DNA of 64,000 bases from Candidatus Daviesbacteria bacterium GW2011_GWA1_41_61 (GCA_000997385.1 LCBT01000002.1:6315-70314), one strand, 5' to 3'. Numbered from the stretch's first letter, positions 48,202-63,386 are shown. Made by a program: numbers and translations. The notes: generated by a model not told the origin, from the sequence alone.

Positions 48202-49071
48202 ATGGTTAGTTTATCAGATGCCAGACAACAATTTATCGGACACCTTAAAGGTAAAAGCCGCTCTTCAGCTACTATCTTAGCCTATGGCAAAGACATTGAG
48301 CAACTAGTAGACCATTTAAAGAAAGAGGGGGTCACTGATCCTTTAGAAGTCACCACAGACCAGATGAAAGACTTTATGGCTAAGTTGGCCAAAGAAGGGT
48401 ACACTCACAAATCCATCTCCCGCAAAACCAACTCTACTAAAACCTTTTTTAAATTTTTAAAAATTTCCGGGATTATTGAATCAGACCCGGCTACCGCCTT
48501 AGAACACCCCACCTTTGAAAATAAACCACCCAGAATTCTAACTAAATTGGAGTACCGGGCCCTCCGGGATGCTGCTCGGGGTGATATCAGGATGTCAGCT
48601 ATTATCGAGTTGCTGCTGCAAACTGGGGTGAGGATTGGCGAACTTTCTAAAATCACCACTCCCGATATTAACTTAGAGGAAGAAAACCCCACCCTTTATA
48701 TCCGACCCACGGAAGGATCTGTGGAAAGAACCATTCCTTTAAACAAACCTGCTGTTGAAATTTTAAAAAAGTACCTGGAGATCAGGCCAAAAACTCAAAA
48801 TAAAACCCTTTTTATTACCAAAACCGGCAGACCATTACTAGTTAGAAACATCAGAACGGCTATTGACCGCTACTTTAAATTAGCTGGCATTAGTGGGACT
48901 AAGGTCAATGATTTAAGACATACTTGGGTGACCCATCAACTGGCCTCAGGTATCTCTTTAACTTTAGTTTCTAAGATGGCCGGACACAAAAGAGTCTCCA
49001 CTACGGAAAGATACCTTCAATATATCCCCCAAAGAACTACTGAGGACAAAGTTAAACTAGAAGAACTTTAA
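48202..49071 (+). CDS. tyrosine site-specific recombinase (XerC/XerD/phage-integrase family)
   Basis: N-terminal SAM-like core-binding domain. Catalytic R...HxxR...Y: LRHTWVTHQL...GHKRVSTTERYLQ. Confidence 0.65.
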   Translation: MVSLSDARQQFIGHLKGKSRSSATILAYGKDIEQLVDHLKKEGVTDPLEVTTDQMKDFMAKLAKEGYTHKSISRKTNSTKTFFKFLKISGIIESDPATALEHPTFENKPPRILTKLEYRALRDAARGDIRMSAIIELLLQTGVRIGELSKITTPDINLEEENPTLYIRPTEGSVERTIPLNKPAVEILKKYLEIRPKTQNKTLFITKTGRPLLVRNIRTAIDRYFKLAGISGTKVNDLRHTWVTHQLASGISLTLVSKMAGHKRVSTTERYLQYIPQRTTEDKVKLEEL

Positions 49072-49667: not shown

Positions 49668-52013
49668 TTATAGTTTAGCTCTTTGGTTAATTTCTGCTTC
49701 CACCTCTGCCACATCCCGCCCATAGGTCAGCCTGGACAACTCCTTAATCGCCTGAGCTATCTCCGGTTTCTTCATGGCATTCCATGCCTTAAAATCAATC
49801 CCCACCTTCATGGAAAAAGGTGGCACTGGCTCTCCTTTAACTTGGGTTTTGACATAAACATTCCAAGCTTCAATATTAACTAGGTCTTGCTCGCTAAATG
49901 TTGGGGCAAATTCATGTTGTAAAAAGTTAGCATCGGTTACACCGATACGGAAAGATATTTGAGTCCCCACGTTCCCAAAGATGGCATTTTTAATATCCTC
50001 CGGCATCTGGCCGATAAATTGGTTGGCTACAATAAGATTTAATTTATACTTTCTGGCCTCAGATAAAATGGTGGCAAAGGTATCGGTGGCAAAATTTTGG
50101 AACTCATCAACATAAAGGTAAAAAGGGCGCCGCTCCTGCTCCGGTATATTGACCCGGGACATCGCTGCTGCTAATATCTTTGGTACCAAGACCAACCCTA
50201 AAAAGTTAGAGTTTTCCTCCCCCATCATCCCCTTGGAAAGATTGACAATTAAGATCTTCCCCTGATCCATAATCTGGCGGAAATTAAAAGAGGATTTTCC
50301 TTGACCGATGATATTGCGCAGCATCCGGTTGGTGACAAAACGGCCGAATTTAGAAACAGTATAGTCTAAAACCTCCGATTTATGAAAATCCGCGGTATGG
50401 GCAATTTGATCTGTCCAATAGCGGCGCACCACCGGATCAGTCACATGAGGCAAAAGCTCTTTGACAAACTCCGGATCCTGCATAATGCGCATTACCTCCA
50501 CAAAAGTATTTCCGGGGACAGCCATGACCGTGAGCATAGCATTTCTGACCCCGTGTTCAAAACGGGGGCCGATAATACCGGTTTTATTGGGATCGTAGAG
50601 TTTATACATTAAACCGATAATCTCAGCAGTAATAAAGTGTTTCTCATCTTCGGTTGAGGCTTCTAACATGTTCATACCAAAAGGCCTTTGGGCATCACCG
50701 GGGTTAAAATAAATCACATCTTTGGCCCGGTGCGGCGGGATTAAAGACAGCATCTCCTCGGCCGCGTCACCGTGAGGATCAACAAAAGCCAAACCTTTGC
50801 CGGCTAAAATATCTTGCAGCATCAAAGTCTTCATTAAAGTAGTTTTACCGGTACCGGTGCGTCCAATGATATACATATGTCTTTGGCGGTCTTCTTCAGC
50901 GATATAGACCGGTCTTTCCAAGCCCCTAAAGACAGATTTACCCAAGTAAAGCCCGGAGGTAGGGATCTTTTCCGAAGCTGGAGCAGCTCTAGCCGGTAGC
51001 CAAGTAATATGGGGAGTAGTAACTGATTTATTAGGAAAGTGATAAATAGTGGCAATCTCATCAGCTGTCAAAACCGGCAGCTTAGCAAATTTCGGCAGAT
51101 AGCGGTAGATTAAATCAGTCATAAAGCCTTTCTCGCCGGGAACCTTGGCTCCGGAAAAGCCGTTGTAAGGGCCGGAGAATTGTTCAAAAACCGCCTTAAT
51201 ATTTGACAGATGAGCTTTGGAGTTGTCTTTGGAAGTTGAAGAGATCGCTGCCCTTAAAACAACATTAAACCCCGGCCGGGCTAACTTCCCTTCCACTGCC
51301 TCCAGTTGTTTGGCATCAGGGGGAGGTTTGGGCGGACTGTCCGGTTTGCCCGGCTCTTTTTCTTTCTTCAGCCATTTTTTACCGCCATCTTTCCACTTAT
51401 TATCAGCTGGAGCTATAATCATCTGCAATAGCGCTCCCTCCTCTGGTTCCATCTTGGCCAAAGCTGCAGTTAAAGAAGAAAGTGGATCAGTGGGTAAATC
51501 ACGATAGGTTTTAAGCGGAAAATAGTTAGCAGCCCGCAGGATATATTGAGTATAAGCTGTTTGACCATCGTCGGTAAAAATATTATATTCCGGAACTTCT
51601 TTAATGGCGGCATCAGGGTAAGCGCCATGAATCTGCTTTTCGATTAGATCCCGCAACGATTTATGAACACAGATCAAGAAGCGGATTGACTCATGTAAAG
51701 CCACAATCTCAAAAGCAATCTGGGCTTGAGGTTGATGATTTAAAAAGCCAGTACTTTTTTTTATAGAGTAAAGGGCGGAGAAAAACTGCTCCATAGCATC
51801 AATTTTAATTTCGTTGTCCCGCGGTACCTCCACCTGTAAGATGACCGACTCTAAGGAGTATTTCTCCCGATCCCGGCTGCGGTACCAACCAACAATAAAG
51901 GGAACCAAAAAAGCCAGTCCTAAAATCACTACCGCCAAGACCACTAAGAGGATTATTCCTCCCGTGAGCAAATCTAATAAATCTGGTTGTGCAGCCTGAA
52001 CGCCAACTTCCAT
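49668..52013 (-). CDS. VirD4/TraD-like type IV coupling protein family ATPase (FtsK/HerA superfamily P-loop NTPase) with N-terminal TM anchor
   Basis: TM helix; Walker A IIGRTGTGKTT; Walker B LYVDEFQNF; LIVANQ...NVGTQISFR. Confidence 0.45.
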   Translation of the reverse strand: MEVGVQAAQPDLLDLLTGGIILLVVLAVVILGLAFLVPFIVGWYRSRDREKYSLESVILQVEVPRDNEIKIDAMEQFFSALYSIKKSTGFLNHQPQAQIAFEIVALHESIRFLICVHKSLRDLIEKQIHGAYPDAAIKEVPEYNIFTDDGQTAYTQYILRAANYFPLKTYRDLPTDPLSSLTAALAKMEPEEGALLQMIIAPADNKWKDGGKKWLKKEKEPGKPDSPPKPPPDAKQLEAVEGKLARPGFNVVLRAAISSTSKDNSKAHLSNIKAVFEQFSGPYNGFSGAKVPGEKGFMTDLIYRYLPKFAKLPVLTADEIATIYHFPNKSVTTPHITWLPARAAPASEKIPTSGLYLGKSVFRGLERPVYIAEEDRQRHMYIIGRTGTGKTTLMKTLMLQDILAGKGLAFVDPHGDAAEEMLSLIPPHRAKDVIYFNPGDAQRPFGMNMLEASTEDEKHFITAEIIGLMYKLYDPNKTGIIGPRFEHGVRNAMLTVMAVPGNTFVEVMRIMQDPEFVKELLPHVTDPVVRRYWTDQIAHTADFHKSEVLDYTVSKFGRFVTNRMLRNIIGQGKSSFNFRQIMDQGKILIVNLSKGMMGEENSNFLGLVLVPKILAAAMSRVNIPEQERRPFYLYVDEFQNFATDTFATILSEARKYKLNLIVANQFIGQMPEDIKNAIFGNVGTQISFRIGVTDANFLQHEFAPTFSEQDLVNIEAWNVYVKTQVKGEPVPPFSMKVGIDFKAWNAMKKPEIAQAIKELSRLTYGRDVAEVEAEINQRAKL

Positions 52014-52015
52014 AA

Positions 52016-52348
52016 CTAGCTTTTTTCTACTACCTCACCCTCCGGATGTTTTTTCCTTAACCTGGCCAAAAAAGTCCCCAAAAAATGCTTGGAGCTTTCC
52101 GTCCGGGGTTTACCTTCAACTCCTGATTTCAAATCTCTCAGATCTATTTTAGGTTGGGGGTTTTTCATCAGCTGTTTTAGCTCCTCTGAGGCCACATCTT
52201 GATCTTGAGAAGGCATCACTTGGTCTGAAGTCACCGGCCCTCCTGTTAAAGCAGTCAAGGTTTGGGCAATATTTTGCTGTAATGTTTGGGTATGCTCATC
52301 AGCATCCTTCCCCGGTTGTAAAACAGACTGACTTTGGACAGTAGACAT
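52016..52348 (-). CDS. hypothetical protein
   Basis: ORF only, co-directional with the ATPase. Confidence 0.25.
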   Translation of the reverse strand: MSTVQSQSVLQPGKDADEHTQTLQQNIAQTLTALTGGPVTSDQVMPSQDQDVASEELKQLMKNPQPKIDLRDLKSGVEGKPRTESSKHFLGTFLARLRKKHPEGEVVEKS

Positions 52349-53432: not shown

Positions 53433-53702
53433 CTAAGGGATAATCCTTCCTGAACCAGTAGTTTGAGGCTCAGTCGGAGTAGGACTCCTTTTGGCTTTGG
53501 GACTAATAGTTGCTGAAGGACTGACGGAAGGACTGGCCTCCACTGTTGGTGTTGGGGTGAAGGTAGGGGTGAGGACTGTGGGGATAGGTGTGGGCGTGGG
53601 GACAACAGTAGTGGCTTGAAACCTTCCCCTCAGCCAAACCAAATATCCGGCGATTAAGATAACGGTCAAAATAATAATTAAAATGGTAACATTACGATGC
53701 AT
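53433..53702 (-). CDS. hypothetical membrane-anchored Pro/Thr-rich protein
   Basis: TM helix followed by a PT-rich linker; low-complexity. Confidence 0.2.
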   Translation of the reverse strand: MHRNVTILIIILTVILIAGYLVWLRGRFQATTVVPTPTPIPTVLTPTFTPTPTVEASPSVSPSATISPKAKRSPTPTEPQTTGSGRIIP

Positions 53703-53838: not shown

Positions 53839-54825
53839 CTAAATCCCCTGGTTGTTTATAACATCATACAGGGAAGCTAAATCTAAATATTGCTGCCTGT
53901 TTACTAAAGCAGGAGCTTTACTATCTGTCCTACTGAACAGTTGGCCTAAAGTCTGGACACTTCCCCCTCCTAAGATAGACTGAAGTGAGAAAGATAGGTT
54001 ATATGATTTAGCTAAATTTTTCCGTCCTGATTTAACATTTAACTGGGTGACTAAATATTGAGCTGAAAATTTATTTTTAGCGCATCGCAGTTGATCACCG
54101 CTTTTTTTGCTGTTGTTACAATTTTTGGTGGCATCATCAATAATTTGCACCATTTTAGTGGTCGTCAAAGGAGCAAAGGGGGTAAACCAGGAGGTATCAT
54201 CTATTGCCTCAAGCCAGGAGTTAATATCACTTTGGAGATAAATTTGATGTTTGTTCCAGTTGCGCCAAAAACCTATTGTCCCTTCATATTCAGTGACAGT
54301 GCCAAAACTTAAATCAAAGATCACAGTTTTTCCTTGGAACTCGTTACCAGCAGAGATGGGGAAGGTTACCTCAAAGTTGTAGGTTTTAGTACTTGCGGGA
54401 TTAATGGTTCCCAAAACTACCCCATCAAAACCGGCACTATCACCAAAAAAGTCAGTCACGCTTTTGGATCCAGTGGGGCTACCATCTCCATAAACTGGAA
54501 CCAAGCCCTCTTTAATGATGATCCCCAGGATTGTTTCTATCTTCAGGTCAGCTCCTACCCCACCTTTTTTGATGGCCTTAACTGCCACTAAATAGCTTTG
54601 GCTACCGCCATTTTGGACATCAACACTTCTGTTCTCCACTCCTCCTGGTGCCCAGTTGTTGACTACAAAGATGGGCTCACTAGGAGGAAGATGAAAATCA
54701 ACCAGCAACTCTCCAAAGGCTCGAACGGTGGAGCTTCTAAAAAGGTTTTTAAAACCACCATTTGCCACAAAAATACTCACCATAATTAGTAGGGCGATAA
54801 TAATTGTTAATAATCTTTTCTTCAT
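53839..54825 (-). CDS. TasA/camelysin (peptidase M73)-like secreted protein with extra C-terminal domain
   Basis: SipW-cognate-type signal peptide. A motif NEFQGKTVIFDLSFG resembles the TasA C-terminal beta-strand signature. Confidence 0.4.
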   Translation of the reverse strand: MKKRLLTIIIALLIMVSIFVANGGFKNLFRSSTVRAFGELLVDFHLPPSEPIFVVNNWAPGGVENRSVDVQNGGSQSYLVAVKAIKKGGVGADLKIETILGIIIKEGLVPVYGDGSPTGSKSVTDFFGDSAGFDGVVLGTINPASTKTYNFEVTFPISAGNEFQGKTVIFDLSFGTVTEYEGTIGFWRNWNKHQIYLQSDINSWLEAIDDTSWFTPFAPLTTTKMVQIIDDATKNCNNSKKSGDQLRCAKNKFSAQYLVTQLNVKSGRKNLAKSYNLSFSLQSILGGGSVQTLGQLFSRTDSKAPALVNRQQYLDLASLYDVINNQGI

Positions 54826-54828
54826 CTT

Positions 54829-56367
54829 TTAACAGCTGCCATTATTACTTATCCCCTTGGTTGGAGCAGTACAAGTTGTCCAAAGATTGGCAGCATCATC
54901 TTGTCGGCCGATCACTTGGTCAGAAGTATCTGTTCCAATATAAGCGTGAGAATCAATAACTTTTCCATCAGGATTTTTTAAGAAGACGGTCTCTGAACCA
55001 CTGTTGTTTAACATCGGAGAGGTAATATCAAGGACTTTAAAGGTGCCGTTACCAATAGTGCCTAAGGAGGTTAAGCTTTTAGTGTTATTGGCAGCATCAA
55101 CGATGGTCCAGCCGTTCAAATTGATCGGGTCACCGCCTGCATTATAAACTTCTACCCATTCATCATTTAAAGGGGAGCTTAATTTATAGACAAACTCATT
55201 TAAGACTAAATTTGTACCATACCCGGAAGTTGGAGTTTCCCGGACAATAAAGTCGGTCGGTTCAAAGTTGGAACCAAGGGCCGAATCTTTACCAACTGGA
55301 ACTCTTTCTATTGACTGATTTAGAACGGGGGTCAGTCCAGTGGTACCTGCCCAGTGCACAGTATCAATGACATTATTTTGAGCATCTAACAGCTGAAGGA
55401 ACCCTACATCAATATTCAGTTGTCCTCCTAAATTGGCCACGGTTGATCCGTGATCATGATAGCACTTATTATTACCAAAAATTGAGGTGTCATGTGCCAG
55501 CAGTACAAATTTACCAGCTTCAGCAGTGATGTTGGTAGCTGTAACCAAGTCAATAATATTGGTCCCATCGGTAATCTTAAAGTTTTTTAAGTTAACATCA
55601 GTGGGAAAGCCATTATAAACCTCTATCCATTGAGCTTCTTTTTGCCCTTGGAAACAGCTGCTATCAGGTAACACTTCATTGATTACTAAAGTTTGGGCAA
55701 TGGGAGGAGCAAATTGGCCAGCAGCGAAAGTATTATTTAGACTTTGGCCACTGTCAGAAAAAAAGGCCCAGGTCTGGCTAGTTTGAAAAAAAGTTACACT
55801 TAAAAAGGCCAATATTACTGGAAAGCTAACTTTGGGCATCGCTGGTAAAGGATCTTTTTTACTTTCCCTCCAGATAGTTAAAGTTTCTGCTACCAGGACA
55901 TAAAGAGTTGGTAAAATCACTAAAAGCAACAACCCTAATTTAGTTTTGGCAAAGCCAATAATAAAGCCTAAAAAAGGCAGGCTGAAGATAACCTTGCCCA
56001 CGATATTTTTTTCACTAACCCCTTTTCCATCAGCACTATTGTTAGCATCCCCCTTGGTCTGATAAACAAAAGAGGAATTAGGTTGTTGAATTTGAATAAT
56101 CCGGTGGGTGACAAAGTTAGTACTACCAGCTATTTTATAGCTGACAATATCTCCCCGGGAAAATTTAGGACTGTTGGGAGAAGAACTTTGAGGGGAAACT
56201 AGCACTACTGAACCAGTCTTAATAGCTGGCTCCATCGAACCTGATAAAACCACTAGTAATTTATTTCTCCCAAAAAGAGGAAGTGTTGAGAAAACTAAAA
56301 GGAAAACTACCGCCAAAAAGGCGACCACAAGAGCTGTCTTAAAGATTATTAGAGTTTTCCCAAGCAC
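54829..56367 (-). CDS. sipW: SipW-type (ER/archaeal-type) signal peptidase I fused to two lamin-tail domains (LTD)
   Basis: VVLSGSMEPAIKTGSVVLV catalytic Ser motif. Two LTD signatures: TLVINEVLPD...EAQWIEVYN and LVLNEFVYK...DEWVEVYN. Confidence 0.55.
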   Translation of the reverse strand: MLGKTLIIFKTALVVAFLAVVFLLVFSTLPLFGRNKLLVVLSGSMEPAIKTGSVVLVSPQSSSPNSPKFSRGDIVSYKIAGSTNFVTHRIIQIQQPNSSFVYQTKGDANNSADGKGVSEKNIVGKVIFSLPFLGFIIGFAKTKLGLLLLVILPTLYVLVAETLTIWRESKKDPLPAMPKVSFPVILAFLSVTFFQTSQTWAFFSDSGQSLNNTFAAGQFAPPIAQTLVINEVLPDSSCFQGQKEAQWIEVYNGFPTDVNLKNFKITDGTNIIDLVTATNITAEAGKFVLLAHDTSIFGNNKCYHDHGSTVANLGGQLNIDVGFLQLLDAQNNVIDTVHWAGTTGLTPVLNQSIERVPVGKDSALGSNFEPTDFIVRETPTSGYGTNLVLNEFVYKLSSPLNDEWVEVYNAGGDPINLNGWTIVDAANNTKSLTSLGTIGNGTFKVLDITSPMLNNSGSETVFLKNPDGKVIDSHAYIGTDTSDQVIGRQDDAANLWTTCTAPTKGISNNGSC

Positions 56368-56400
56368 CTCAACACCTCCTTTCTAAACCACTGGCCTCCA

Positions 56401-56985
56401 CTACTGCGAAGCGTCTTGGTTTAAGGTAACTGTCCAATCGCTATCCACACTATCACCTTGATACTCATTCCCGGCATCAGACCTGAAGGTAACAGTCAGA
56501 TCTAAGTTGTGATTAGTATTAAGGTCGGTCAAGGCTAAATTATCCAAACCTGAAGATTTAAGATCATCAAGGTCTGTCCAACCGTTGCCATTGTTGTTTA
56601 TCACTTGAGACAAAACACTAACCCCGCCATAGTCCAAAGTTGTAAGCTCCAGGACCTTGTCTAAGGGGTTGGTGATATCAGAGTTGGTATTAACCAAAGC
56701 TACTTCGGCGTGACTGGCCGCTATTGACCCTGTATTTTTAAGTCTTAACTGTCCGGAAACAGAAGCACCCGGGGCAAGATTAGTCCCCCCAAAGCTGGCG
56801 GTAACATTATCCTGATCAGTCTCTGGAGTATTATCAGAAAGTTTTAAATCCAAAGTACCGGCAGCAAAAACATTATCATTACTGGTTCCCTGATTGCTAA
56901 AGTAAGCAAAAGTGGCAACTGAAATGATGGCCAAAGAAGCCAAAATACTGGCTGAGGAGAGAACTATTTTTGTATTGATTACCAT
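56401..56985 (-). CDS. TasA/camelysin family protein
   Basis: AYFSNQGTSNDNVFAAGTLDLKLSD matches the TasA N-terminus (AAFND...TFASGTLDL). C-terminal NEYQGDSVDSDWTVTL. Confidence 0.55.
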   Translation of the reverse strand: MVINTKIVLSSASILASLAIISVATFAYFSNQGTSNDNVFAAGTLDLKLSDNTPETDQDNVTASFGGTNLAPGASVSGQLRLKNTGSIAASHAEVALVNTNSDITNPLDKVLELTTLDYGGVSVLSQVINNNGNGWTDLDDLKSSGLDNLALTDLNTNHNLDLTVTFRSDAGNEYQGDSVDSDWTVTLNQDASQ

Positions 56986-57118: not shown

Positions 57119-57412
57119 TTAATCGTGTTTGACAAATGCTTGATCAAAAGTTGGATCGTTTTGTCTTAAATATTCAATAAGCATGGCAGCATGCTCTTTT
57201 TCCTCATCACGGTTATGAGCTAAAACCTTTTTAAGGGGCTCATCCTCACTGGCCTGAATCCTCTCTTCATAAACATTGATGGCATCAAGTTCCTCGATTA
57301 AAGATTGTCTGGCCCGGGCTAAATTTTTAGCTTGCTCATCTTCTTTTTGGGCATCAAAACCCAAGTTATATGTCATATATATCACCTCCTGGTAGATTGA
57401 ATGATAGCACAC
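57119..57412 (-). CDS. small ferritin-like diiron-motif protein (EncFtn-like); likely starts at internal Met (MTYNLGF)
   Basis: E...EExxH pattern (YEERIQ...DEEKEHAAML) in an ~85-aa helical protein. Confidence 0.3.
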   Translation of the reverse strand: MCYHSIYQEVIYMTYNLGFDAQKEDEQAKNLARARQSLIEELDAINVYEERIQASEDEPLKKVLAHNRDEEKEHAAMLIEYLRQNDPTFDQAFVKHD

Positions 57413-57520: not shown

Positions 57521-57886
57521 ATGATCGAAGTTAGACTGGCAATTGAAGACTCTAAAGATTCGGGTCTTTCCCTGGAGGTGGTAAGGTCTCTTACCACGGA
57601 AGAGGTTGAATCTCTCATCCAGGTAAAGTTAAAGGTACTCTACCCTACAAAGGTCATTAGACAGGAAATTTCTGAAGCAAAGCGGTGCATACTGATAAGT
57701 GATTTGGGACTACTTGAAGAAGTGAGACCAATGCAGGTGATAGTAGCAGATCCGCCACCATCAAAAGAAGAGATTCGCTTCACTAAGGAAAGGGAGAGAG
57801 CTCAAAGATTAGCTGAGGAAATAAGATATCTTTCAGGGTTGGAACGACCAAAGGGGAGACACCCTACTCACCGGCATCCCATCTAA
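57521..57886 (+). CDS. hypothetical protein
   Basis: ORF only. Confidence 0.25.
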   Translation: MIEVRLAIEDSKDSGLSLEVVRSLTTEEVESLIQVKLKVLYPTKVIRQEISEAKRCILISDLGLLEEVRPMQVIVADPPPSKEEIRFTKERERAQRLAEEIRYLSGLERPKGRHPTHRHPI

Positions 57887-58020: not shown

Positions 58021-58680
58021 TTATTTTAAATCCTTTTTCATTTCTTCAAATTCTTTCTTACCTATTTCTCCACGAGCGTAACGCTCTTTTAGAATTTCTA
58101 AAGGAGTTTTTTCTTTATCGCTACTTTTCCCTGAACCACCCAGATAGCGAATAAGGGCAACTACGCCAAGAATTATAAGAATCCAGAATATAATCATAAA
58201 GAGCCATCCTAAGATTCCGAATCCCCAGCCCATCATATTACCCCAATCACCATATCCCATCATAGGGTTTCCACCTCCTCTCATCATCCACATCATCGGC
58301 ATAAAACCCACTCCACAACCGCTATTTCTTTTACCCATAGCAATATGCATCTGTTCTTCGCCTTCCTCACCCATCATGCTTATCATCATCTGATTCATGG
58401 CAACATGTCTTTGGGTATCGCCGATTGATTGACCCATAAAATACTCGCCAAGCACTGCATAATTGTCGTCAGTAAGGTCTTTACATTCAAACTGTTTTGT
58501 TTGTAATTTTTCCCAAATAACTTTGCCTTCTGCCTCCTCAGAAGCAGTATGGTTATCAGTTGGGGATGTTGTTTGTGCCTGCACTGACCCTCCACTTATT
58601 ATAAAAACCAAAAGAAAGAAGGCCGCTATCAGAATGGTAATTTGTCTCATATTAATCAAGAAATTGGAAGAAATTTCCAA
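58021..58680 (-). CDS. Met-rich membrane protein with C-terminal SHOCT domain (probable start MRQITIL at 58650)
   Basis: Signal/TM region. Methionine-rich motifs (MNQMMISMMG, GFMPMMWMMRGGGNPMMGYGDWGNMMGWG). Second TM helix. SHOCT-like LKERYARGEIGKKEFEEMKKDL. Confidence 0.4.
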   Translation of the reverse strand: MEISSNFLINMRQITILIAAFFLLVFIISGGSVQAQTTSPTDNHTASEEAEGKVIWEKLQTKQFECKDLTDDNYAVLGEYFMGQSIGDTQRHVAMNQMMISMMGEEGEEQMHIAMGKRNSGCGVGFMPMMWMMRGGGNPMMGYGDWGNMMGWGFGILGWLFMIIFWILIILGVVALIRYLGGSGKSSDKEKTPLEILKERYARGEIGKKEFEEMKKDLK

Positions 58681-58737: not shown

Positions 58738-60198
58738 TTAAACTCCACAGCCTCCTCCTTGGCTTGGTGGTGGCTCAACTATACCGTTTTCTGTCAGCCA
58801 TTTCTTCACTGTTTGCGCGCCGAAAGCCGAGGAGATGTCTTTACTAAGCACCAACCTGGCATCTATATCTTTATAATCCTTACCCTCTTTATTTTTAAAG
58901 TAAAGAGCAATATCATAGTAATTACCGGGAAACCAAAAAGCATTGATATATTTTGCCGCCTCATACATTTCATCTTCAGTTGCCCCGTTTGCCGCCATCA
59001 ACTCAAGTATTCCGAGTAATGCCATGCCATGGTTACAGTCGGGAAATGCTGTTGAATTACCACAACATGGCCTGTAAATATTTGAGGCAACTTTATTTAC
59101 CAGCTCTTCTTGTTCGGCGGTGAATGGCATCAAAGCCCTTTTTGAGTAATAGTCAGTTGCATCACCTTTGGCAAGCGTCCACCCGCCAGTTGAGGCAAAG
59201 TTGCCTACTTGTCCCTGGCCGTATTTAACCATGTCACCTGCTGTCAATATTTTGGTTTTATTACCAAGTCCAAAGGCCCAAAAAAAGTTTAATAAGAAAT
59301 AGGAGTTACTTTGGTCGATTTTGATCGTCTTATCAGAGCCACGAATCAAGATCTCTTCCTGTTCCGGTGTTAACGGTTGTCCAGATTGCTGGTAAACTTG
59401 TTTAAATTTTTCCAAGTCAATTACCCCCATCTCAAGCATCTTAGGGCCGATATTGCCATATGTAGCATTCATCTCATATCCCCCTGCAGGGTTAATCTGA
59501 GCAAAGACATCGGCTGAGTTAACTTGAGTTTTTGAAACATTATTAGATACTGCAACTACCGTATCATTTTGGGTTTTAGCTCGATATTTGATCGGAAGTC
59601 TGGGAATAGCGTAAACAATAAAAATAAACAAAACTAACAGCAATAGGGGCTGCAATTGAGAAAGACTTTTCCTGTTAATATTGAGGGCCAATTTATTATT
59701 GTGGAAGGATATTAAATTCTTTTTCGGAATTTCACAAAGTCCTAGAACACTTTTTGAGTATTGCCAGATTGCATACAGAAGTATAAGAGCTGAGAAAATT
59801 TTTATTTCCAATCCCCCAAAAGGAAAAGCTGCCAAAGATGCAGCAATGCCAAGGGTTGGAAGAAGGAAAGCACTGCAAACCGAGCATCCTGTCACAGCTG
59901 CGGAAAAAAATAAAGATCCAAGAGTATGTAAAAACGTTGACTTAGATCCTTGCCTTCTCTCTTCTACTACATAGAAAAGAAAAGAAATAGTAACTCCTAT
60001 AAGTAAGGCGTTAATAATACTTAGGACTACCTGGGACCATACATACCAGGTGGTATTAGACTGCCAAAAAGCATCCCAGGTAGTTCTTTGGATAAGGATA
60101 AGATAATACAGAAATAAAACATTAAAAGTGACGGCCGCTGTAATAACCCAAGCATAAGATTTATTAAAAACTTTCGTTAAAGCAGTTTGGAAAATCAT
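58738..60198 (-). CDS. membrane protein with Cys-containing TM segment and Cys/His-containing extracytoplasmic domain
   Basis: ~5 TM helices (TGCSVCSAF) followed by a ~300-aa soluble domain with RPCCGNSTAFPDCNHG and a C-terminal GGGCGV. Confidence 0.35.
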   Translation of the reverse strand: MIFQTALTKVFNKSYAWVITAAVTFNVLFLYYLILIQRTTWDAFWQSNTTWYVWSQVVLSIINALLIGVTISFLFYVVEERRQGSKSTFLHTLGSLFFSAAVTGCSVCSAFLLPTLGIAASLAAFPFGGLEIKIFSALILLYAIWQYSKSVLGLCEIPKKNLISFHNNKLALNINRKSLSQLQPLLLLVLFIFIVYAIPRLPIKYRAKTQNDTVVAVSNNVSKTQVNSADVFAQINPAGGYEMNATYGNIGPKMLEMGVIDLEKFKQVYQQSGQPLTPEQEEILIRGSDKTIKIDQSNSYFLLNFFWAFGLGNKTKILTAGDMVKYGQGQVGNFASTGGWTLAKGDATDYYSKRALMPFTAEQEELVNKVASNIYRPCCGNSTAFPDCNHGMALLGILELMAANGATEDEMYEAAKYINAFWFPGNYYDIALYFKNKEGKDYKDIDARLVLSKDISSAFGAQTVKKWLTENGIVEPPPSQGGGCGV

Positions 60199-60386: not shown

Positions 60387-60881
60387 GTGAAAGCGAAAAG
60401 GGGTTGTATTTTCCGGGGAAGAGTGTATCATAAAAGTATGAATAATAAGGTGATGATCGGACTAATTGTAATTATTATTCTTTTCGCTGGCAGCTTTTTC
60501 TTACTCAATAAAAATAATTCTACTACTCCGCAGTCAAATTCCTCTCAGAATACTCAAGTTTTACCCTCTCCTACGAACGCTCAAACTACTTCGGGAGCAG
60601 AGCCACAACAAACTCAGAATGTAGTAACATACACAGTAAGTGGTTTTTCTCCAGCAACCTTAACGGTAAAAGCCGGGACTACAGTTACATGGGTAAATAA
60701 AAGTGGGAGTAATTTTTCTCTTAACTCCAATCCACACCCGGTACATACTGATTATCCGCCATTAAATATTGGCATAACAGGAGACGGACAATCGAAAAGC
60801 CTCACCTTTGATAAGCTTGGAACGTATGGCTATCACAACCATCTTAATCCAAGCGATACAGGAGAAGTTATTGTACAATAA
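60387..60881 (+). CDS. secreted cupredoxin-like domain protein lacking the canonical Cys ligand
   Basis: Signal anchor plus TVTWVNKSG...PHPVH...GTYGYHNHLNP, which resembles the amicyanin/plastocyanin pattern but with Cys replaced. Confidence 0.35.
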   Translation: MKAKRGCIFRGRVYHKSMNNKVMIGLIVIIILFAGSFFLLNKNNSTTPQSNSSQNTQVLPSPTNAQTTSGAEPQQTQNVVTYTVSGFSPATLTVKAGTTVTWVNKSGSNFSLNSNPHPVHTDYPPLNIGITGDGQSKSLTFDKLGTYGYHNHLNPSDTGEVIVQ

Positions 60882-60954: not shown

Positions 60955-62199
60955 CTAAGGGAGAAGCAAAACTGCATTAGCAGCGTTGACACGGCCGGAA
61001 GACCAATACATTCCAGTTCCGGGAATTTTATCCGCTGTTCCCTCAAGCCTTGTTCGAACTTGAGAAGCAGAAGTTCCATAAGGCGTTGACCAAATAAGGG
61101 CGGCTACAGCTGATGTCATTGGAGTAGCCATAGAAGTTCCTGAGCCAAAATCATAGCCTAGTGACTTATTTATTTTATATGGGTGGTTGGGGAATGTAGA
61201 AAAGATGTCAACACCAGGAGCCGCTACATCAACCCATTTTGCTCCGTAGCTAGAAAATGTTGCTTTTTGGTCTTTATTATTAGTGGCAGCTACAGCGATG
61301 GCATTTGTATAAGCGGCAGGGTAAGTTTTTGAGGGATTACCCGAATTACCGGCCGCTGCCACCACCACAACACCTTTACTCCAAGCATAGTTCACTGCAT
61401 TTTCCAAAGTAAAAGATTTTACAGAGCCTCCCAAGCTCATATTGATAACTTTGGCTCCATTATCTGCCGCCCAAGTAATACCACTGGCTATCCAGGAATA
61501 AGCGCCCGAACCGTTGTCATTTAACACTTTACCATTTATTAATTGGCAACTAGGACAACCACTGGCTACTCCAGTTCCATTATTGGTAACGGCTGCCACT
61601 ATTCCTCCCACATGAGTCCCATGTCCATACATATCATCATATCCTGATGATGAACCTGTGAAATCTCTATTTAAGACAATCTTTGGAGATAAATCCTCAT
61701 GGTCTTGGTCAATGCCGGTATCTAAAATAGCAACTTTCACTCCGCCGGCAGTTGTCTCCCAAGCGGTAGGGCCATCAATATCTGCATCAACTACCCCGGT
61801 AATACCTTTAATAATTTGTCCGGTGTTTTCCAGTCCCCATTGATTACCAACAAAGTATGTATCATTTGGGATAAAGAAAGCTTGCCCAATATAGTCTAAC
61901 TCCGCATAGTCTACGTGAGGGTTCCTGGACAATGCAGCAACTACTTTTTCTTCTGCTGTCTGAGGCACCTGCAACACTAAAACTCCAAGAGCTTCAAGTT
62001 TATTAACTACCCGTGCTCGATTATTTCTTAACAAATTATCCCTATCCGCCTGTGAAACCCCGTCCTTAAACTTTATAAGGACTTGACCGGGTACATGATT
62101 GTTATTATCCTGAGCTTTTGCTAAAGGAGAAAACAGGTTAAAGAAGCCTAAAAGGAGAATAAATAGTAAAGTAATTGAGAAGATGAATAATTTTTTCAT
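60955..62199 (-). CDS. subtilisin-like serine protease (peptidase S8) with signal peptide and propeptide
   Basis: Catalytic triad contexts VAILDTGID (Asp), HGTHVGG (His) and GTSMATP (Ser). Confidence 0.65.
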   Translation of the reverse strand: MKKLFIFSITLLFILLLGFFNLFSPLAKAQDNNNHVPGQVLIKFKDGVSQADRDNLLRNNRARVVNKLEALGVLVLQVPQTAEEKVVAALSRNPHVDYAELDYIGQAFFIPNDTYFVGNQWGLENTGQIIKGITGVVDADIDGPTAWETTAGGVKVAILDTGIDQDHEDLSPKIVLNRDFTGSSSGYDDMYGHGTHVGGIVAAVTNNGTGVASGCPSCQLINGKVLNDNGSGAYSWIASGITWAADNGAKVINMSLGGSVKSFTLENAVNYAWSKGVVVVAAAGNSGNPSKTYPAAYTNAIAVAATNNKDQKATFSSYGAKWVDVAAPGVDIFSTFPNHPYKINKSLGYDFGSGTSMATPMTSAVAALIWSTPYGTSASQVRTRLEGTADKIPGTGMYWSSGRVNAANAVLLLP

Positions 62200-62330
62200 A
62201 TCAATAACTGAAATTATTGTAAATAAACTTGAGAGATAAATCAAGCAGCAGTCTTGTCTCATACAAAATAAGTATGAAATTAAGGTAAGCTCTCATACAA
62301 AAAGAGCATAAAAATATAGTCCAATTAAAA

Positions 62331-63386
62331 TTATCTAAAATAAGTCTCGTTGGCAAACTTAATCTGTTCTATAAACAACTTTTTGATTTCATAAATACTT
62401 TCCTGCTCGTAAAACAAAATTAAAGCCTTTTTAAATTCATCTTCGTCAACACTGCGATATGAAAGTGGATATAAATCATAAGCTAACAAAATCGCATTTG
62501 TCAGCATTCTGGCAGTTCTTTTGTTGCCATCTGCATACGGCTGAATATAAGGAACCATAAAATGAACAATTAGCGCTTTTTCAAAAGGGATTTTGACCCT
62601 GTTTACAACATTAATTGTTTTTTCAAAAACCTCTTTTGTCTGATGTTCATTATCAAGAGGATGATAAGTTGTTCCGGTAATTCCCACTGCTTGTTTTCTG
62701 ATACCAAAAGAAATCCCCAATCCTTTAATTAAAATATTGTGCAGCTGATTAATTCCTGAAACAGAAATAGTTTTAAAATCTTTTTTTGCTTTTAGTATTT
62801 CTTCAAAAGCTGCTTTGTGATTAAGAATCATCACTGCCTCATCTTTGCTCTTACCAACTGCTTCTTTTTGTTCCTTAATTAAAGACTCTGTTTCTAAAAG
62901 CGTATAAGTATTGCCTTCAATTTTGGATGATTTCCAAGACAATTCAATGACAAACCTTTCCAGTTCCCTTTTCAAAAGGTCAGGACTCAGTTTAACCGTC
63001 TTCTCTCTAAAACTTAGTGCCACTCTCTCTAAAGTATTTATTTCTTCCGGCGTCAATAAATCATGCAAATTTTTAAATATCTCAAAATCAAATGATTTTC
63101 TGGCACCAATTCTATTGTCTGGATCATCGGCGAAATATCTTTCAAGGTTAAACTCGCGAAGAAGCGGGTTGAAAACTTTGGAAAAATATATTGTAGCTCT
63201 AGCCTTCCCTGTTACCCTAACCAGTTTTTTAATCAATAAAACATGAAGATCCCTTATAGCGGTTGGCTTTGAAACGGGATATAATTTAGAAACTTTTTCT
63301 TGAATTTCTTCTCTAAGAAGTCCTTCCGATTGGTTAATTATATTAAGAATATATTTTTGCCTTGTAGTTAATATCGTCTCATCCAT
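62331..63386 (-). CDS. Fic-domain-like protein with N-terminal wHTH and degenerate active-site motif
   Basis: QPYADGNKRTAR sits where HPFx(D/E)GNGRxxR is expected (H->Q, G->K). N-terminal DeoR-like wHTH. Confidence 0.45.
   Translation of the reverse strand: MDETILTTRQKYILNIINQSEGLLREEIQEKVSKLYPVSKPTAIRDLHVLLIKKLVRVTGKARATIYFSKVFNPLLREFNLERYFADDPDNRIGARKSFDFEIFKNLHDLLTPEEINTLERVALSFREKTVKLSPDLLKRELERFVIELSWKSSKIEGNTYTLLETESLIKEQKEAVGKSKDEAVMILNHKAAFEEILKAKKDFKTISVSGINQLHNILIKGLGISFGIRKQAVGITGTTYHPLDNEHQTKEVFEKTINVVNRVKIPFEKALIVHFMVPYIQPYADGNKRTARMLTNAILLAYDLYPLSYRSVDEDEFKKALILFYEQESIYEIKKLFIEQIKFANETYFR

Follow-up and report, generated by a model that had tools for sequence, protein, structure and literature searches.

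The cassette described here occupies positions 53839-56985 of a 64,000-nucleotide stretch of DNA (the window) from Candidatus Daviesbacteria bacterium GW2011_GWA1_41_61 (GCA_000997385.1, LCBT01000002.1:6315-70314). It consists of three co-directional open reading frames (ORFs) on the minus strand, termed here g1, g2 and g3, which are separated by spacers of 33 nt (g1-g2) and 3 nt (g2-g3) and bordered by 133 nt of non-coding sequence upstream and 136 nt downstream (Table 1). Its middle gene encodes, as one polypeptide, a SipW-type signal peptidase, an internal signal peptide and two lamin-tail domains (LTDs), an arrangement that is most likely an enzyme-substrate fusion and not a peptidase decorated with an anchor. 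Each of the three products is 100% identical to a GenBank entry from Candidatus Daviesbacteria metagenome-assembled genomes (MAGs; Microgenomates, Patescibacteria), and public annotation masks the cassette under the names "signal peptidase I" and "hypothetical protein". All three ORFs are present where a first-pass annotation of the window had placed them. Strong, well-spaced Shine-Dalgarno (SD) sequences precede the ATG of g1 (AAAGGGGGTGAGAAA) and the GTG of g2 at 56367 (GAAAGGAGGTGTTGAG), and the start of g3, so close past the g2 stop, suggests translational coupling; the limits of the putative operon are judged from spacing alone.

Products of the three genes

The first gene product, g1, was matched by Pfam Peptidase_M73 (PF12389; 45.1 bits, cut-off 22.5, E 1.3e-11) over residues 6-193 of 194 (profile positions 5-194 of 196) and by TIGR04088, the model for SipW-cognate signal peptides, at residues 12-45 (27-30.8 bits, cut-off 19); PF12389 is present in 116 of the 118 listed g1 homologues. 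The protein carries the motif A↓[FY]F[SN][DN]...F-A-x-G-T-L-D-L (arrows denote predicted cleavage), and around its own predicted cut reads ...VATFA↓YFSNQGTSNDNVFAAGTLDL. In TasA, the mature protein begins at residue 28 (PMC10151520), and residues 28-38 form the donor strand (PMC9674648). The closest PDB sequences to g1 are those of TasA (8aur, 5of1), which are weak matches (phmmer E 0.2) in which g1 residues 33-97 align to TasA residues beginning ...KSKDATFASGTLDL. By analogy, g1 is presumed to be the major fibre subunit.

The N-terminal part of g2 (residues 14-161) matched TIGR02228, archaeal-type signal peptidase I, at 108 bits (cut-off 51.85, E 4.2e-31). Against the Bacillus SipW equivalog (NF046067) g2 scored 119.8 bits (E 1e-34), under that model's cut-off of 190: The peptidase is of the SipW class but lies outside the Bacillus SipW orthologue group. 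Its closest PDB sequences are human SEC11C and SEC11A (6e-10). The catalytic residues are S44 (in SGSMEP), H88 (in THR) and D107 (in GDAN), with His, not Lys, as the general base; none of the three varies among 19 homologues, and across 60 homologues each is conserved in at least 90%.

Past the second membrane span, g2 continues as RESKKDPLPAMPK-VSFPVILAFLSVTFF-QTSQTWA↓FFSDSGQSLNNTFAAGQF, and this segment, situated between the peptidase and the LTDs and unnoticed in the first-pass annotation, contains a motif, T-W-A↓FFSDSGQSLNNTFAAG, that corresponds to the cut site and opening strand of proteins of the TasA family. Written as a pattern, the motif is T-W-A↓F-F-S-D-x-G-x-S-x-N-N-x-F-A-A-G, positions -3 and -1 being occupied by small residues, and the peptide from the predicted mature start F202 reads FFSDSGQSLNNTFAAGQFAPPIAQTLVINEVLPDSSCFQGQK. 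In an alignment of 60 sequences, the N-terminal regions of the standalone LTD proteins P0012, P0014, P0016, P0017 and P0044 line up with the segment that is internal in fused forms. Positions D205, S209, N212 and A216 show at least 90% conservation, and the linker ahead of the hydrophobic core, in which basic residues predominate, ranges in length from 0 to about 70 residues. Similarly, a hidden Markov model built from g1-family proteins only matches g2 residues 187-219 (E 6e-7). A loose pattern used for cleavage-site statistics matched 82 of 107 fused homologues, and among these 82 position -3 is T/S in 70, position -1 is A/S in 76 and position +1 is F/Y in 77. Judged by hydropathy and charge, the loop at 166-180 (4 K/R) lies inside and the cut would fall outside, adjoining the extracytoplasmic catalytic domain; in the AlphaFold2 (AF2) model, residues 182-196 are helical and residues 198-219, which lead up to the first LTD, are disordered (pLDDT <50). 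By positional homology, n-h-c structure and the (-3,-1) rule, the internal segment of g2 is a SipW-type signal peptide.

The remainder of g2 (residues 222-512) matched Pfam LTD (PF00932) in two stretches (87.1 bits, cut-off 34.3). In the AF2 model (pLDDT 87) the LTDs are two beta-sandwiches, and Foldseek matched these folds to the immunoglobulin (Ig) folds of lamin B1 and lamin A/C with probability 1.0 and TM-scores (target) of 0.5-0.68. Two conserved cysteines in the first LTD, C238 and C302, suggest an extracytoplasmic disulfide, and the second LTD is missing from single-LTD homologues of roughly 400 aa. Standalone homologues of g2 (340-350 aa) span only its C-terminal 65%, at 54-57% identity, and open with the same signal peptide and motif: The orthologue P0012, for example, begins ...SVTHA↓FFKSTGTSTNNVFAAA, and one standalone LTD orthologue bears the JGI name "with SipW-like signal peptide".

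The third product, g3, is a divergent member of the set. Its N-terminal domain had no Pfam match at E <= 0.1; when the trimmed domain was compared by hhalign, profile-profile similarity to TasA was established, as was fold similarity, the best fold match of the g3 model being the fibre form of TasA. A profile of the whole g3 alignment searched against PDB sequences was swamped by RTX repeats from the C-termini of homologues and was set aside as uninformative for the N-terminal domain. The all-helical C-terminal domain had no Pfam match either, and a fold search of the PDB with it returned only designed helical repeats and generic helices; it contains a Cys pair and is common to P0122, P0123 and P0127. 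In P0127 it sits behind a CarboxypepD_reg/SdrD_B-like domain, and thus behaves as an independent mobile module. We regard g3 as probably a minor or functionalised fibre subunit.

These matches bear out what the first-pass annotation had described at the locus, i.e., a sipW-tasA-like cassette made up of a TasA/camelysin-family protein, an ER/archaeal-type peptidase of the SipW kind carrying two LTDs, and a second TasA-like protein, here divergent, with an extra C-terminal domain. The findings that it had named as telling against itself, a failure of the TasA-family or LTD profiles or an absence of the catalytic Ser or His, did not arise.

Related loci and genomic setting

We compared the window with 11 related loci (L001, L003 and L005-L013), drawn from the contigs of two homologues and from a scan of GTDB species representatives with a 19-sequence alignment; the scan yielded 14 loci, nine of which (L005-L013) contain cassette genes and five an LTD only. 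Where names are informative, the related loci belong to MAGs of Woese-, Davies-, Roizman- and Moraniibacteria. The cassette noted by the first-pass annotation in a single genome recurs with constant gene order: All 12 loci have at least one TasA-like gene with a SipW-type signal, followed by sipW and then by the signal-LTD segment, and in nine of the 12 a gene with the g3 N-terminal module comes next (L008 and L009 stop at a contig edge, and L012 has none). SipW and LTD are fused in seven loci (the window, L003, L005-L008 and L010), whereas in L001, L011, L012 and L013 a separate sipW is immediately followed by a signal-LTD gene, the stop of the one overlapping the start of the other by 4 nt in L001 and L013. 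L009 appears split into two ORFs overlapping by about 50 nt, for which a frameshift is possible. In a neighbour-joining tree of the first LTD, which is crude and drawn from a sample that favours fused forms, the split state recurs at scattered points among fused sequences, which takes at least 8 changes by the Fitch count, and nearly all split sequences have a fused nearest neighbour; fused and split states clearly interconvert.

The same layout was recovered at larger scale from a library of 1.84 billion representatives, clustered at 50% identity, in which g2 matched 192 representatives at E <= 1e-30. Among the best 150 of these 192 are 105 fusions of peptidase and LTD, 13 standalone signal-LTD proteins and 24 giant multi-LTD proteins, and the internal motif is retained in 99 of the 105 fusions. 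Almost all fused clusters whose source names an organism are from Patescibacteria. That the fusion is an artefact of assembly or frameshift is ruled out by the recurrence of the layout in over 100 fused clusters, independent of one another and derived from many metagenomes. The succession of SipW, transmembrane (TM) segment and internal signal/FFSD motif also occurs with other cargo, including RTX repeats (P0365), CBM/Big-like domains (P0103) and unassigned beta domains (P0104, P0107 and P0117), and the LTD is therefore one cargo of several and not integral to the peptidase.

Several further features accompany the cassette in related loci. Secreted Ser/Thr/Asn/Gly-rich repeat proteins of about 200 aa follow it in L001 (8478-9116) and L003 (8762-9361), with a repeat (e.g., "TGxNxAxxNTGGGxVxxxSGxAxSxxxVxNxxxSN") that the window does not contain; the same repeat serves as the linker between TasA-like module and LTD in g3-family proteins (L001 6989-8389, P0126, P0137 and P0138), and could serve as a spacer folded as a beta-helix or beta-solenoid. 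In L003 (9484-10772) and L001 (10020-10538), a gene for a sortase is situated 2-3 kb away from the cassette, and that of L003 adjoins a gene for a Pro/Ser-rich protein ending in LASTG, a TM segment and a basic tail, likely a sortase substrate, such that some lineages may anchor a fibre-associated protein to the wall via sortase. Typical Patescibacterial cassettes in L007, L010 and L013 come from MAGs labelled Gammaproteobacteria/Pseudomonadales, which are probably mislabelled bins.

In the window itself, the cassette is surrounded by genes of unrelated housekeeping or mobile functions (EncFtn-like ferritin, thioredoxin reductase, VirD4/TrwB-like ATPase, XerC/D, subtilase and Fic), and no sortase, LPxTG substrate or extra cassette gene was found anywhere in its 64 kb. 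The EncFtn-like (encapsulin-associated ferritin-like) protein encoded directly upstream of the cassette scored below the cut-offs of TIGR04535 and EncB, and there is no adjacent encapsulin shell gene. The coupling ATPase lies near a tRNA and the XerC/D-type integrase, and this region may be a mobile-element remnant or a CPR-type (candidate phyla radiation) component for DNA uptake or secretion. The SHOCT, multi-TM and cupredoxin-like genes may constitute a cluster for metal (copper?) handling.

Table 1. Features of the cassette and of neighbouring genes (positions in the window; residues refer to the encoded protein)
Feature	Position	Strand	Description
g1	56401..56985	-	194 aa; TasA/camelysin (Peptidase_M73); GenBank "hypothetical protein UU73_C0002G0066"
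g1 signal peptide, residues 1-27	56905..56985	-	predicted SipW cut T25-F26-A27↓Y28, placed by TasA analogy
g1 mature N-terminus, YFSNQGTSNDNVFAAGTLDL	56845..56904	-	putative counterpart of TasA donor strand (beta0) and first core strand
g2	54829..56367	-	512 aa; SipW-type signal peptidase, internal signal peptide, LTD-LTD; GenBank "Peptidase S26B, signal peptidase", KKR82814.1 (the 512-aa form)
g2 peptidase, residues 1-170	55858..56367	-	TM1 (about 7-25), extracytoplasmic S26B domain, C-terminal TM (about 143-165); from TIGR02228, hydropathy, AF2 helices
g2 internal signal peptide, residues 171-201	55765..55857	-	n-region KKDPLPAMPK; 15-residue h-region VSFPVILAFLSVTFF; c-region QTSQTWA; predicted cut A201↓F202
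g2 residues 202-221, FFSDSGQSLNNTFAAGQFAP	55705..55764	-	TasA-like beta0/donor-strand motif at predicted mature N-terminus of LTD protein
g2 LTD1, residues 222-384	55216..55704	-	Ig-like beta-sandwich; Pfam LTD, Foldseek
g2 LTD2, residues 385-512	54832..55215	-	ends ...TCTAPTKGISNNGSC; best Pfam LTD stretch 385-477; AF2 beta-domain 387-499, pLDDT >85
g3	53839..54825	-	328 aa; secreted, two domains; GenBank "hypothetical protein UU73_C0002G0064"
g3 N-terminal part, residues 1-178	54292..54825	-	signal peptide (h-region 5-23) and divergent TasA-like jelly-roll ending AGNEFQGKTVIFDLSFG
g3 C-terminal domain, residues 179-328	53842..54291	-	all-helical; conserved EGTIGFWRNWNKH motif, INNQGI end; AF2 helices across 183-325
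XerC/D-type integrase	48202..49071		
Coupling ATPase	49668..52013	-	781 aa; TrwB/TraG/VirD4-like, N-terminal TM
110-aa ORF	52016..52348	-	just upstream of coupling ATPase
89-aa ORF	53433..53702	-	136 nt downstream of g3; one TM, Pro/Thr-rich tail; SD-like GGGAGGTG; no family match
EncFtn-like protein	57119..57412	-	97 aa; PF22277 4.6e-28
121-aa ORF	57521..57886	+	divergent, near EncFtn-like gene; no family match
SHOCT protein	58021..58680	-	Met/Gly-rich membrane protein, C-terminal SHOCT domain
Multi-TM protein	58738..60198	-	486 aa; Cys-rich soluble domain; no Pfam match; adjoins SHOCT protein
Cupredoxin-like protein	60387..60881	+	after the SHOCT/multi-TM pair
Subtilase	60955..62262	-	secreted S8 family; fervidolysin-like N-terminal prodomain
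Fic-domain protein	62331..63386	-	N-terminal region resembling a winged helix-turn-helix

Proposed processing of the fusion and its alternatives

We favour, and consider on balance probable, the interpretation that the cassette is the Patescibacteria version of a sipW-tasA fibre operon in which the peptidase is translated as one polypeptide with its own substrate. According to this model, the third hydrophobic segment of g2 would insert with its N-terminus in and its C-terminus out, like an ordinary signal peptide, and would thereby bring A201↓F202 to the outer face of the membrane beside the active site, where the S26B domain would cut it, either in cis or from a neighbouring molecule. Cleavage, which the sequence makes quite probable, would free, in a 1:1 ratio with the enzyme, a protein of about 33 kDa (residues 202-512) in which a donor strand like that of TasA precedes two complete Ig-like LTDs. 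The released protein would donate its strand to g1 (or g3) and so nucleate, cap or anchor a donor-strand-exchange fibre made mainly of g1, with g3 as a minor subunit of TasA fold whose variable head would be adhesin-like or functional. Donor-strand fibre formation by g1 we infer by analogy with TasA (PMC9674648). The combination of an N-terminal strand with a complete Ig fold, as in TapA, led us to propose the LTD-LTD protein as a TapA-like nucleator, cap or anchor, an analogy that stays tentative and to which we give slightly less than even credence.

The first-pass annotation had read the LTDs as a module or anchor of the peptidase itself, a reading that we revise: The LTDs are preceded by a conserved, complete signal peptide, they are orthologous to separately encoded secreted LTD proteins, and other cargo occupies their place behind the same layout. 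Its count of two cognate substrates holds in so far as g1 and g3 are kept as TasA-like proteins, but the LTD part is better read as a further substrate, which brings the total to three. The anchor idea, spelled out as a model in which the third hydrophobic segment is a TM helix that stays uncut, so that the permanently tethered LTDs anchor the enzyme or fibre base to wall, host or DNA while the tethered FFSD strand nucleates fibres, draws on the fact that g2 is a single ORF without an internal SD, on an internal segment under the TIGR04088 cut-off, and on the co-localisation of TapA with the membrane in B. subtilis, which makes a membrane-bound nucleator plausible (PMC10151520). We nevertheless hold it to be unlikely. 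The h-region comprises only 15 hydrophobic residues and gives way to a polar c-region, and this short h-region, together with the small residues that 70-76 of 82 homologues have at -3 and -1, points to selection for cleavage and not for membrane anchoring; moreover, the orthologues, which share the signal peptide, are secreted proteins of the ordinary kind, fused and split states swap repeatedly, unrelated cargo stands behind the same motif, and nothing in the analysis supports DNA binding by the LTDs.

Alternatively, the LTD protein might be translated separately as a normal pre-protein from Met177 (ATG at 55839), with the full-length fusion a read-through product that is minor or non-functional. 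The signal-like segment (MPKVSFPVILAF...) does begin precisely at Met177, and the LTD gene of split loci starts at the equivalent position, overlapping the sipW stop; however, there is no SD 5-12 nt from this ATG (the nearest GGAGGG is about 24-29 nt upstream, whereas the SDs of g1 and g2 are well spaced), Met177 is not conserved in fused homologues (e.g., P0002, P0024 and P0032), and the linker, so variable in length, has no conserved start features, all of which makes internal initiation very improbable. A different objection concerns the fibre: g1 and g3 might be proteases of camelysin type (M73), either soluble or on the cell surface, or antimicrobial proteins, and the LTD protein an unrelated secreted Ig-like binder, leaving the cassette as a module for secretion and processing only. 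The Pfam family is indeed named "camelysin metallo-endopeptidase", the identity between g1 and TasA is low, and we know of no imaged fibres of TasA type on Patescibacteria. This, too, seems quite improbable to us, given that the best match of the g3 model is to TasA in its fibre form, that no feature common to all cassette proteins is conserved more strongly than the N-terminal strand motif, i.e., the fibre interface, and that the sole structurally characterised members of the family are donor-strand fibres (8aur; PMC9674648; PMC9245690).

Several observations weigh against the enzyme-substrate model. The regular expression missed about one in four of the 107 fused homologues, which is tempered by the 94% of fused representatives that match the profile. 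TIGR04088 applied to g2 residues 177-232 alone reached only 14 bits (cut-off 19, E 0.042), and the assignment was therefore based on orthology and custom profiles. Strand function alone, with no cut being made, could account for the conservation of the motif; the N-terminus of g3 lacks the AFFSD motif, which makes its dependence on SipW uncertain; and scans of the cassette for consensus promoters and terminators gave counts near shuffle expectation.

If the cut does occur, the fusion would offer a compact natural system for studying substrate recognition by an ER/archaeal-type peptidase and cleavage in cis versus in trans, one shared by at least 100 clusters at 50% identity. The proposed model would also extend the TapA principle of a strand-donating nucleator to a deeply different bacterial lineage, and TasA-type donor-strand fibres with swappable adhesin modules are candidate host-attachment structures of ultra-small episymbiotic bacteria. 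More speculatively, and with considerable doubt, SipW-substrate fusions might act as a self-processing secretion device that fixes a 1:1 ratio of enzyme to nucleator and initiates fibres at the peptidase, and fibres with interchangeable heads (LTD, RTX, CBM-like or the g3 helical domain) might make up a second major class of Patescibacteria surface appendage for attachment to host cells.

Comparison with known systems

As a rule, a type I signal peptidase is an enzyme that stands alone, and we know of no described signal peptidase that is translated together with its own cleavable substrate. In line with the first-pass suggestion that the context was undescribed, the literature searched, whose coverage is incomplete, contained no paper linking SipW with LTDs or with CPR bacteria, or describing a peptidase-substrate fusion; the sole paper found there on CPR bacteria and LTDs concerns an unrelated locus. 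TasA homologues in Patescibacteria are mentioned in passing (PMC9245690).

The nearest relative of the cassette is tapA-sipW-tasA of B. subtilis, with which it shares a dedicated ER/archaeal-type Ser/His/Asp signal peptidase, an adjacent TasA/camelysin jelly-roll subunit with a SipW-type signal and donor-strand motif, and an accessory secreted protein composed of a TasA-like strand and a complete Ig-like fold (TapA there, LTD-LTD here). In B. subtilis, TapA starts donor-strand-exchange polymerisation by donating its N-terminal strand to TasA, its own Ig fold being already complete, and it is made at low, SipW-like levels from a gene whose stop overlaps the start of sipW (PMC10151520; PMC9674648). 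The accessory gene is likewise coupled to sipW in Patescibacteria loci, by a 4-nt overlap or by fusion, and the second TasA paralogue has a parallel in sipW-calY1-calY2 of B. cereus. The cassette differs from the Bacillus operons in its order (tasA-like, then sipW::accessory, then a second tasA-like gene), in the fusion of the accessory protein downstream of the peptidase via an internal signal peptide, and in the fold of that protein, which is an LTD (PF00932) and not the V-set domain of TapA; furthermore, the helical C-terminal domain of g3 has no Bacillus counterpart, and the host is an ultra-small Patescibacterium and not a spore-former. No TapA family was found in Pfam/NCBIfam scans of g2 and g3, and the likeness to TapA would be one of functional analogy, not of membership. 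Terra et al. reportedly found in 2012 that SipW of B. subtilis is bifunctional, its C-terminal tail being needed for surface-adhered biofilms independently of peptidase activity; this tail, said to comprise about 20 cytoplasmic residues with a regulatory role, is a precedent for an extension past the second membrane span, although g2 is extended by 340 residues of exported cargo that a signal peptide precedes.

More distant systems share single elements. The AbpA/AbpB bundling pili of Pyrobaculum and the CanA/CanX cannulae are archaeal donor-strand filaments of the TasA superfamily that have neither the fusion nor an LTD, and their operons encode no dedicated signal peptidase (PMC9245690). Bacterial LTD (PF00932) surface proteins have the Ig-like LTD fold in an extracytoplasmic setting, as in the giant multi-LTD proteins recovered here, whereas the LTDs of g2 follow a strand of TasA type and are synthesised in one polypeptide with a peptidase; to our knowledge, there is no established function of bacterial LTDs that could be transferred to g2. 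Cumulatively, these comparisons place the cassette within the sipW-tasA kind, as a variant that is not categorically new: Its fusion architecture is solidly established and widespread, cleavage and fibre assembly are what we infer from it, and its new elements are the enzyme-substrate fusion via an internal signal peptide, a putative LTD-based analogue of TapA, the modular g3 family and the Patescibacterial host.

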